This document shows positions 15,935 to 17,137 of a DNA stretch of 64,000 nucleotides, piece by piece (position 1 is the first letter of the stretch; the number at the start of each line of letters is the position of its first letter). A program made the position numbers and the translations under genes. This stretch comes from Fimicolochytrium jonesii (taxonomy: Eukaryota), in NCBI RefSeq assembly GCF_025526975.1, contig NW_026515686.1, positions 310,001 to 374,000 on the forward strand. Reading direction: 5' to 3'. The notes below the pieces were generated by a model. It worked only from the letters and a program-made list of their open reading frames with translations. It was not told where the DNA came from and made no database searches.

Positions 15935-17137
15935 CTACGCCTTCTTGTAACACCAAGGCTTGTTGTTGGGGTTAGGTGTCAACGCCTTCCAGCAGCATCC
16001 CTTCGATTCGCACCCGCTTTGCGTGATGCCAGGGTTTCCACAGTCGACCCTCGAGTCAGTCGAGACGGCGCATGGGTCGGCTTCCTTGAAAAAGCAGTAA
16101 GCATCCCCGGGCTTTGCGTTCCAGCAGCATCCGGAAGCTTCACACCCAGACTGGGTGATTCCGGCGGCTCCGCAGTCGGTGCGTTTAAAGACGTTGGAGA
16201 GGTTGCATGTTCCCGGGGTGGGGTTGGAGGTTGGGCTTGGGGAAGGGGGGGCGGTCGATGTGGGTTGCACTGTGGGCTTTGCGGTGGTGGTAGGCTTTGC
16301 AATGGTGGTGGCGCTGGGCGCCTCGCTCTTGACGGTGGATGTGGGGACGGTTGAGGAAGTGGATGGCTTAGGGGGAGGAGTGTCACCGCCGCTGATGGAG
16401 ATGTCCGCGCAGCTAAGGTAGACCTGCTCCGTCTGCTGCGAGTTCCACTTGAAGGAGAGGAGGGTGCGCTTAGAGGAGTAGTTCGGTATCTTGATCTTGG
16501 ACGAAACGGTATATCCGCCGGCTATGGAGGTGTAGCACGACCCTTTCGGGGCCCTGTCCACGCTCTGGCACCTCGACCCGTCGTTGAAGGATCCACATGT
16601 GAACCAGTCCGTCCTGTGACACGGTGCACCGGCGGGACAGTCGGGGTTGAACCCGCACTTCTGGCCGGGGACATCAGTGCATTTCAGAAGTCCAGCCTCG
16701 AAGCACTTCTCGGCCGCTCGTTTCTCCGCGATGGTGGGGAGGTATCCGGGCGTCAAGAACTTGTCGACGAGCTCTTGGTCCTGGCAGATTCGGTAGCTGA
16801 ACATACCCCCGTGATCTCCATTGTTGTCGACGCACCATTGCACATCAACGATGTCGCCGGCCTTGTAGTCGACGACGGTGGAGTTGCCCCATGCCGGTCC
16901 CGGCTGGTTGTAATCCTTGCTCACACGGGCGTTGTAACCGCACGGTCCGCTGCGACCGACGTCGGCGGCATTGAGGTCGGGCCAGGCGGGGACGGGCTCG
17001 AGGATGGCGCATTCGGGGCAGGTGTCGATGCCGGCTTCACTTGCGAGACGAGTGCGGGAGAAGGGGATGGTGAGGTAGCCGTGCGCGTGGACGGATGCCA
17101 CGCCAAAGGCGAGGAGAGAGAGAGATGATGCGAGCAT
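15935..17137 (-). CDS. Secreted AA13-family (starch-active type) LPMO with S/T/P linker and two C-terminal trefoil (P-type) domains
   Basis: Signal peptide then [84 protein letters not shown]-terminus has two copies of R-x-DCG-x-x-GIT-x-x-x-C-x-x-x-GCCW...[YW]C[FY]. Intronless. Confidence 0.95.

Follow-up and report, generated by a model that had tools for sequence, protein, structure and literature searches.

We found that a gene at positions 15935-17137 on the reverse strand of the window, the 64,000-nucleotide stretch of DNA analysed here, encodes in one uninterrupted open frame without a stop a protein of 400 residues, in which an AA13 catalytic domain is followed by two trefoil domains. 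Judged by its sequence, the protein is a genuine member of the AA13 family with a new arrangement of modules. On balance, we favour the reading that it is a likely secreted and likely starch-oxidising copper enzyme, whose trefoils are likely to tether it to the surface of starch or glycogen in the place of CBM20.

The protein comprises, in order, a probable signal peptide (residues 1-18; 17084-17137), the AA13 LPMO catalytic domain (residues 19-249; 16391-17083; delimited by alignment to AoAA13), a linker of 60 residues rich in S, T and P (residues 250-309; 16211-16390), trefoil domain 1 (residues 311-351; 16085-16207) and trefoil domain 2 (residues 356-398; 15944-16072), all on the reverse strand. 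Inspection by eye showed a hydrophobic leader of 18 residues ending in V-H-A, taken as the probable signal peptide, with cleavage placed before His19; the AoAA13 alignment likewise starts at residue 19. A putative TATA-like element (17223-17229, reverse strand) lies some 90 nt upstream of the start codon, and a possible polyadenylation signal, AATAAA (15787-15792, reverse strand), about 145 nt past the stop codon, both being read from the sequence. The best homologue, P0002, is a public protein of Fimicolochytrium jonesii (Spizellomycetales), which agrees with the zoosporic fungal host deduced in the earlier note, and is identical to the 400-residue protein except that it lacks 62 residues (290-351).

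The earlier note had recognised an AA13 domain from an N-terminal His, a His within NGDHGG and a Tyr within QVYLSCAD, and this assignment was borne out. Residues 19-248 cover AoAA13 of Aspergillus oryzae (PDB 4opb) from end to end (E 6.3e-109), and no LPMO structure other than 4opb was matched at E 0.1. The copper ligands of AoAA13, His1, His91 and Tyr224 (numbering of PMC4338556), align with His19, His109 and Tyr240, so that His19, N-terminal if the signal peptide is as read by eye, pairs with His1 of mature AoAA13; His109 lies within NGDHGG, and Gln238 and Tyr240 within QVYLSCAD. All four residues of the aromatic path of AoAA13 (W83, F95, F161 and W215) are kept, as Trp101, Phe113, Phe179 and Trp231. 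The proposed linker was likewise found, with S, T and P making up 67% of its residues.

The two six-Cys trefoils that had been proposed were confirmed by Pfam Trefoil (PF00088), which matched two stretches at 16207-15944 with a score of 69.3 bits (cut-off 21); the cysteines are residues 311, 322, 332, 337, 338 and 348 in trefoil 1, and 356, 366, 376, 381, 382 and 396 in trefoil 2. A search of the protein for CBM20 (PF00686) gave no match at E up to 1. The AlphaFold model of the tandem, made from a 42-row alignment, had a mean pLDDT of 87 and is predicted to adopt the three-loop trefoil fold, and a Foldseek search with this predicted structure gave TFF2 (1pos) as the best match, with an E of 1.8e-5, followed by TFF3, TFF1 and GAA (5KZW). 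In TFF3, a disaccharide is reported to be contacted only by Asp20, on O4/O6 of the non-reducing sugar, and Trp47 (Jarva et al. 2020, PMC7221086). Trefoil 2 has both residues, as Asp365 and Trp395, and trefoil 1 has Asp321 for Asp20 and Tyr347 at the Trp47 position. Human TFF1-3, with the same two residues, did not bind maltose by ITC (PMC7221086), so these residues mark a sugar site and not its ligand. The same source describes isomaltose on the trefoil of the lysosomal alpha-glucosidase GAA (PDB 5KZW) and proposes that mammalian enzymes which process amylose bind (iso)maltose.

Trefoils were suspected from the start to occupy the position of CBM20, and the homologues agree: among the best 120 of 472, 116 carry CBM20 and the other 4 carry trefoils. 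These four are all from chytrids, namely F. jonesii, Borealophlyctis nickersoniae (two proteins) and Powellomyces hirtus, which places the AA13-trefoil fusion in three genera and two orders among the best 120 homologues; the P. hirtus orthologue is already labelled as a 'P-type domain-containing protein' in public databases. Searching with the catalytic domain alone revealed no further named chytrid among the best 120 of 456 matches. A metagenome scan seeded from this one protein found 27 AA13 loci, none of which aligned beyond residue 295; the trefoil pattern was found in 0/27 of these loci, and a loose CBM20-like motif in 25/27. The earlier note gave filamentous ascomycetes as the source of characterised AA13s; the family is not confined to ascomycetes, since two proteins of the basidiomycete Psilocybe show AA13-CBM20.

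Within the best 120 of the 456 matches, the catalytic domain is 70-78% identical to the other 119, the top one being from Pyrenophora, and the top matches, from Pleosporales at 78% identity, suggest transfer. In a tree of 57 of 140 AA13 domains, hand-picked for taxon spread and without an outgroup, a weak branch (75/75) separated all the ascomycete rows from the chytrids and Psilocybe. AU tests rejected neither chytrid monophyly (p-AU 0.44) nor a clade of chytrids and Dothideomycetes (p-AU 0.19), so that descent and transfer are both compatible with the sequences. Contamination was ruled out by fungal housekeeping genes in the neighbourhood, an even GC content and the presence of the fusion in orthologues from two further genera.

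No cluster of starch genes was found around the AA13 gene, either among 13 other ORFs scanned with Pfam or by eye. Of the recognised genes nearby, the closest is one for an MGM1-like dynamin (19300-22153, forward strand). At a distance of 8 kb lies another LPMO-like gene (6896-7873, reverse strand), whose product has a signal-like leader and an N-terminal His and matches Pfam LPMO_10 (E 1.8e-9); a linker of P/T/K/A repeats leads to a C-terminal tail, about 55 residues long and Cys-rich, for which Pfam gave no match. By eye, this product appears AA11-like. Farther along are a leucine-rich-repeat ORF followed by an ORF that looks kinase-like by eye (49139-50779, forward strand), and a low-complexity ORF of 963 residues with internal repeats and no Pfam match (52576-55467, reverse strand).

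AA13 enzymes without CBM20 are reported to perform poorly. For example, the activity of bare AoAA13 was not detectable (PMC4338556), binding and action are poor in the absence of the module (PMC4338556, PMC7405360), and the loss of a CBM20-bearing AA13 from A. nidulans had its worst effect on resistant starch (PMC7405360). A binding module is thus to be expected in the chytrid AA13. As AA13 was itself discovered by module walking from CBM20 (PMC4338556), a search for trefoil fusions may be seen as the reverse of that logic. With the tandem as the query, 18 longer proteins were matched, of which 13 were starch enzymes (three AA13, six GH15, two GH31, one of them also carrying the starch module CBM26, and two GH13), three were AA5-like and two had no enzyme domain. 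Trefoils were thus present on GH13, GH15 and GH31 enzymes, the three families on which the earlier note had proposed to look for them. A search of 1.84 billion representatives gave 638 matches, the best 150 of which were taken further; 90 of these (4+86) were scanned with Pfam, and 60 that had no trefoil-free stretch of 70 residues were omitted. Fusions to carbohydrate enzymes numbered 14 among the best 150 of 638, and 11 of them were starch enzymes: nine GH15, one GH31 with CBM26, one alpha-amylase, two AA5-like proteins and one weakly GH99-like protein below the cut-off made up the set. In two further proteins among the 90 the partner was a reverse transcriptase or a domain with a weak likeness to phosphatases, and 74 of the 90 had no enzyme domain.

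Several of these proteins show how the trefoils are deployed. Two GH15 glucoamylases of Powellomyces hirtus end in C-terminal tandem trefoils; GH31 enzymes from the Piromyces and Pecoramyces clusters of anaerobic gut fungi (P0128, P0184) have three to six trefoils together with CBM26 in one N-terminal array; and protists are represented by Namystynia, Chlorochromonas and Octactis. Between the chytrid GH15s and those protist GH15s that have their trefoils at the N-terminus, identity is only about 27%, which points to separate fusions. P0123 (Geranomyces variabilis), P0124 and P0127 resemble AA5 glyoxal/galactose oxidases; they have a hydrophobic stretch at the N-terminus and no fewer than five trefoils, most of them without the stacking Trp, and can serve as natural negative controls when starch binding is assayed. 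P0308 has a weakly GH99-like domain (E 0.0024) and two trefoils from which the Trp is absent. The trefoil, a candidate for a new family of carbohydrate-binding modules, is in these proteins a discrete non-catalytic domain, found on AA13, GH13, GH15, GH31 and AA5 enzymes at either terminus. Because it occurs on starch-degrading enzymes of three kinds besides AA13, it is likely to be a starch-binding module there too.

The main rival to this reading also accepts a starch-type AA13, but takes the trefoils to be a general module of secreted proteins, which would bind some other glycan (in the wall or mucilage of the fungus itself, or on the surface of pollen or algae) and so hold the enzyme close to the rhizoids, or would merely shield it from proteases. 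We consider this rather unlikely, although several findings do speak against a starch tether: the trefoils on the Geranomyces AA5 oxidase and on the weakly GH99-like protein, the many scanned proteins without an enzyme domain, the Tyr in place of Trp in trefoil 1, and two features taken up below, Arg224 and the omission of trefoil 1 from P0002. The sugar-contact positions were surveyed in 476 trefoil domains, which a regular expression extracted from 160 proteins out of 164 (missing 4), with P0002 and its near-duplicate P0125 excluded. Both an Asp/Asn and an aromatic residue were kept in 35/44 domains of starch enzymes, 3/18 of other carbohydrate enzymes and 226/414 of the rest, so that the stacking aromatic is absent from most of the non-starch fusions, which speaks against a general module. 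Counted by protein, both residues were kept in 22/23 starch enzymes, 1/4 other carbohydrate enzymes and 87/133 of the rest (Fisher p 0.005 and 0.003). The counts by domain and by protein are not independent, owing to repeats and kin, which inflate the Fisher p, and the matches were selected by likeness to the query. Starch-enzyme domains also made up 11 of the 20 nearest to trefoil 2, against 38/470 overall. In addition, the attachment of trefoils to four unrelated families of starch enzymes, at either terminus, would be unexpected for an anchor blind to the substrate.

Two further rivals concern the gene model and the catalytic domain. P0002 takes out as an intron an in-frame GT..AG stretch of 186 nt (16085-16270, reverse strand), which holds part of the linker and the whole of trefoil 1; it has a pyrimidine run as well as GT and AG edges, and its excision reproduces P0002 exactly, a protein therefore with one trefoil only. 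If the main product were this form, the tandem would be an artefact of reading or a minor isoform, but we find this very improbable, because the residues encoded by 16270-16085 include a complete six-Cys trefoil and are 69% identical (35/51) to B. nickersoniae P0003 of another order (Rhizophlyctidales), and P0004 also retains the trefoil-1 stretch. The candidate donor, GTGCAA, is poor, and 186 nt is more than twice the length of two presumptive introns nearby, of about 75 and 80 nt with donors GTAAGG and GTACGT; the open frame alone is weak evidence, 1857/10000 shuffles of the stretch being free of stops. The comparison with the orthologue thus argues that 16270-16085 is coding and that the intron call in P0002 is a prediction error, with splicing possible as a minor form. 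Other public models of the chytrid orthologues (P0003, P0004, P0007 and P0137) also look mis-spliced, two lacking the N-terminal His, one omitting the end of the catalytic domain and one having an unrelated C-terminus, and such models may be a reason why the AA13-trefoil fusion has escaped notice. The other rival holds that the catalytic domain has drifted off starch oxidation, towards fungal alpha-1,3/1,4-glucan, glycogen only or little activity, with the trefoils targeting that other substrate. It has in its favour Arg224 (16466-16468, reverse strand), at a position where 135/135 Dikarya AA13 rows have His, as do the three further chytrid rows that span it, and Thr176 in place of Asn, Arg224 being the clearest of the losses at conserved columns, as well as the length of the chytrid branches, which at 0.21 and 0.46 exceed most others (median 0.073). 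Nevertheless, 112 of 115 highly conserved columns (at least 95% in 135 Dikarya rows) are retained together with every copper and aromatic-path residue, and the His persists in Powellomyces and Borealophlyctis proteins of the same architecture. Arg224 replaces the third conserved His preceding the N-x-F/Q-x-Y motifs, which has been given as a feature of the AA13 family (PMC10782670) and which we did not treat as family-defining; the position probably corresponds to the extra conserved His reported to lie outside the copper sphere and to be no copper ligand (Lo Leggio et al. 2015, PMC4338556). Drift of this kind accordingly seems improbable to us.

For the favoured reading, a starch-oxidising enzyme with starch-binding trefoils, a mechanism may be proposed by analogy. 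It is highly probable that the protein would be exported and then cleaved, with His19 and His109 holding the copper and Tyr240 close by, and that with a reductant and O2 or H2O2 it would, like characterised AA13s, cut alpha-1,4-glucan at C1. With less assurance, though still with fair likelihood, each trefoil would grip a terminal alpha-glucosyl disaccharide in the manner of TFF3, the Asp on O4/O6 of the non-reducing sugar and the Trp or Tyr stacked on the next, two weak sites providing avidity where amylopectin or glycogen presents densely packed chain ends or alpha-1,6 branches. CBM20 binds the sides of chains, whereas the trefoils would bind their ends. GH15 glucoamylases with trefoil tails, from the same family of fungi, would then attack the nicked granule, and the pairing of trefoil AA13 with trefoil GH15 would mirror the ascomycete set of AA13-CBM20 and GH15-CBM20.

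A broader proposal, which we advance tentatively and with a little less than even confidence, is that the trefoil is an old, eukaryote-wide starch and glycogen module acting on non-reducing chain ends, which zoosporic fungi and many protists use where Dikarya use CBM20 and which has been bolted repeatedly onto AA13, GH15, GH13 and GH31; in these chytrids it would underlie a complete starch system, oxidative as well as hydrolytic, and the TFFs of animals, which bind mucin, would represent a later change of ligand. If the starch reading is true, oxidative starch breakdown would extend to zoosporic fungi, beyond the range of AA13 given in PMC4338556, PMC7405360 and PMC10782670, and starch-binding modules would gain a new family from a fold known mainly through mucus biology. 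Because the tandem is free, borne on a linker and expressible alone, the role of the trefoil on human GAA, maltase-glucoamylase and sucrase-isomaltase becomes directly testable, and a disulfide-locked starch binder of 45 residues, with a binding mode unlike that of CBM20, could be of use in enzyme engineering.

The suggestion that the trefoils are an unrecognised alpha-glucan module stands only in part: the fusions to GH13, GH15 and GH31 and the kept ligand residues lend it comparative support, but 'unrecognised' has to be given up, the idea being partly anticipated by the (iso)maltose proposal for mammalian GH31 trefoils (PMC7221086). No report of an AA13-trefoil protein or a chytrid AA13 was found in the literature searched, which excludes most subscription journals. 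Neither AA13 nor trefoils are mentioned in the accessible text of a review of zoosporic fungal enzymes (PMC6690862), nor are trefoils in the available portions of two papers on LPMO modularity (PMC10154629, PMC8615602). Trefoils have been described as an auxiliary domain on a mollusc GH31 (PMC7560691), and fungal trefoil-factor-like lectins have been predicted (bioRxiv 10.1101/2021.04.01.438069).

Compared with known systems, the chytrid protein shares with the AA13 starch LPMOs (AoAA13, PDB 4OPB; AnAA13A and NcAA13, with CBM20) the catalytic domain, the His brace and Tyr, the aromatic path and the order of linker and C-terminal module, but its module is two trefoils instead of CBM20, one conserved His is Arg, and its host is a chytrid, whereas AA13 has been described as found exclusively (PMC4338556, 2015) or mainly (PMC7405360) in ascomycetes, or in five classes of them (PMC10782670). 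With TFF1-3, it shares the six-Cys trefoil, the Asp/Trp sugar-contact positions, the predicted fold and the tandem layout, TFF2 being a single-chain tandem; its trefoils, however, are attached to an enzyme, and the TFFs are reported to bind mucin GlcNAc-alpha-1,4-Gal but not maltose (PMC7221086). The GH31 alpha-glucosidases with an N-terminal trefoil (GAA, MGAM and sucrase-isomaltase) are alike in bearing a trefoil on an alpha-glucan enzyme, and the predicted fold matches 5KZW, but in the chytrid protein a long linker carries a trefoil tandem at the C-terminus of an oxidative enzyme, the arrangement that a free CBM has. CBM20 occupies the same place in the protein and has the same partners as the trefoils (GH13, GH15 and AA13; PMC4338556), whereas the trefoil is unrelated to it in sequence and fold and is predicted to grip the end of the chain rather than its side.
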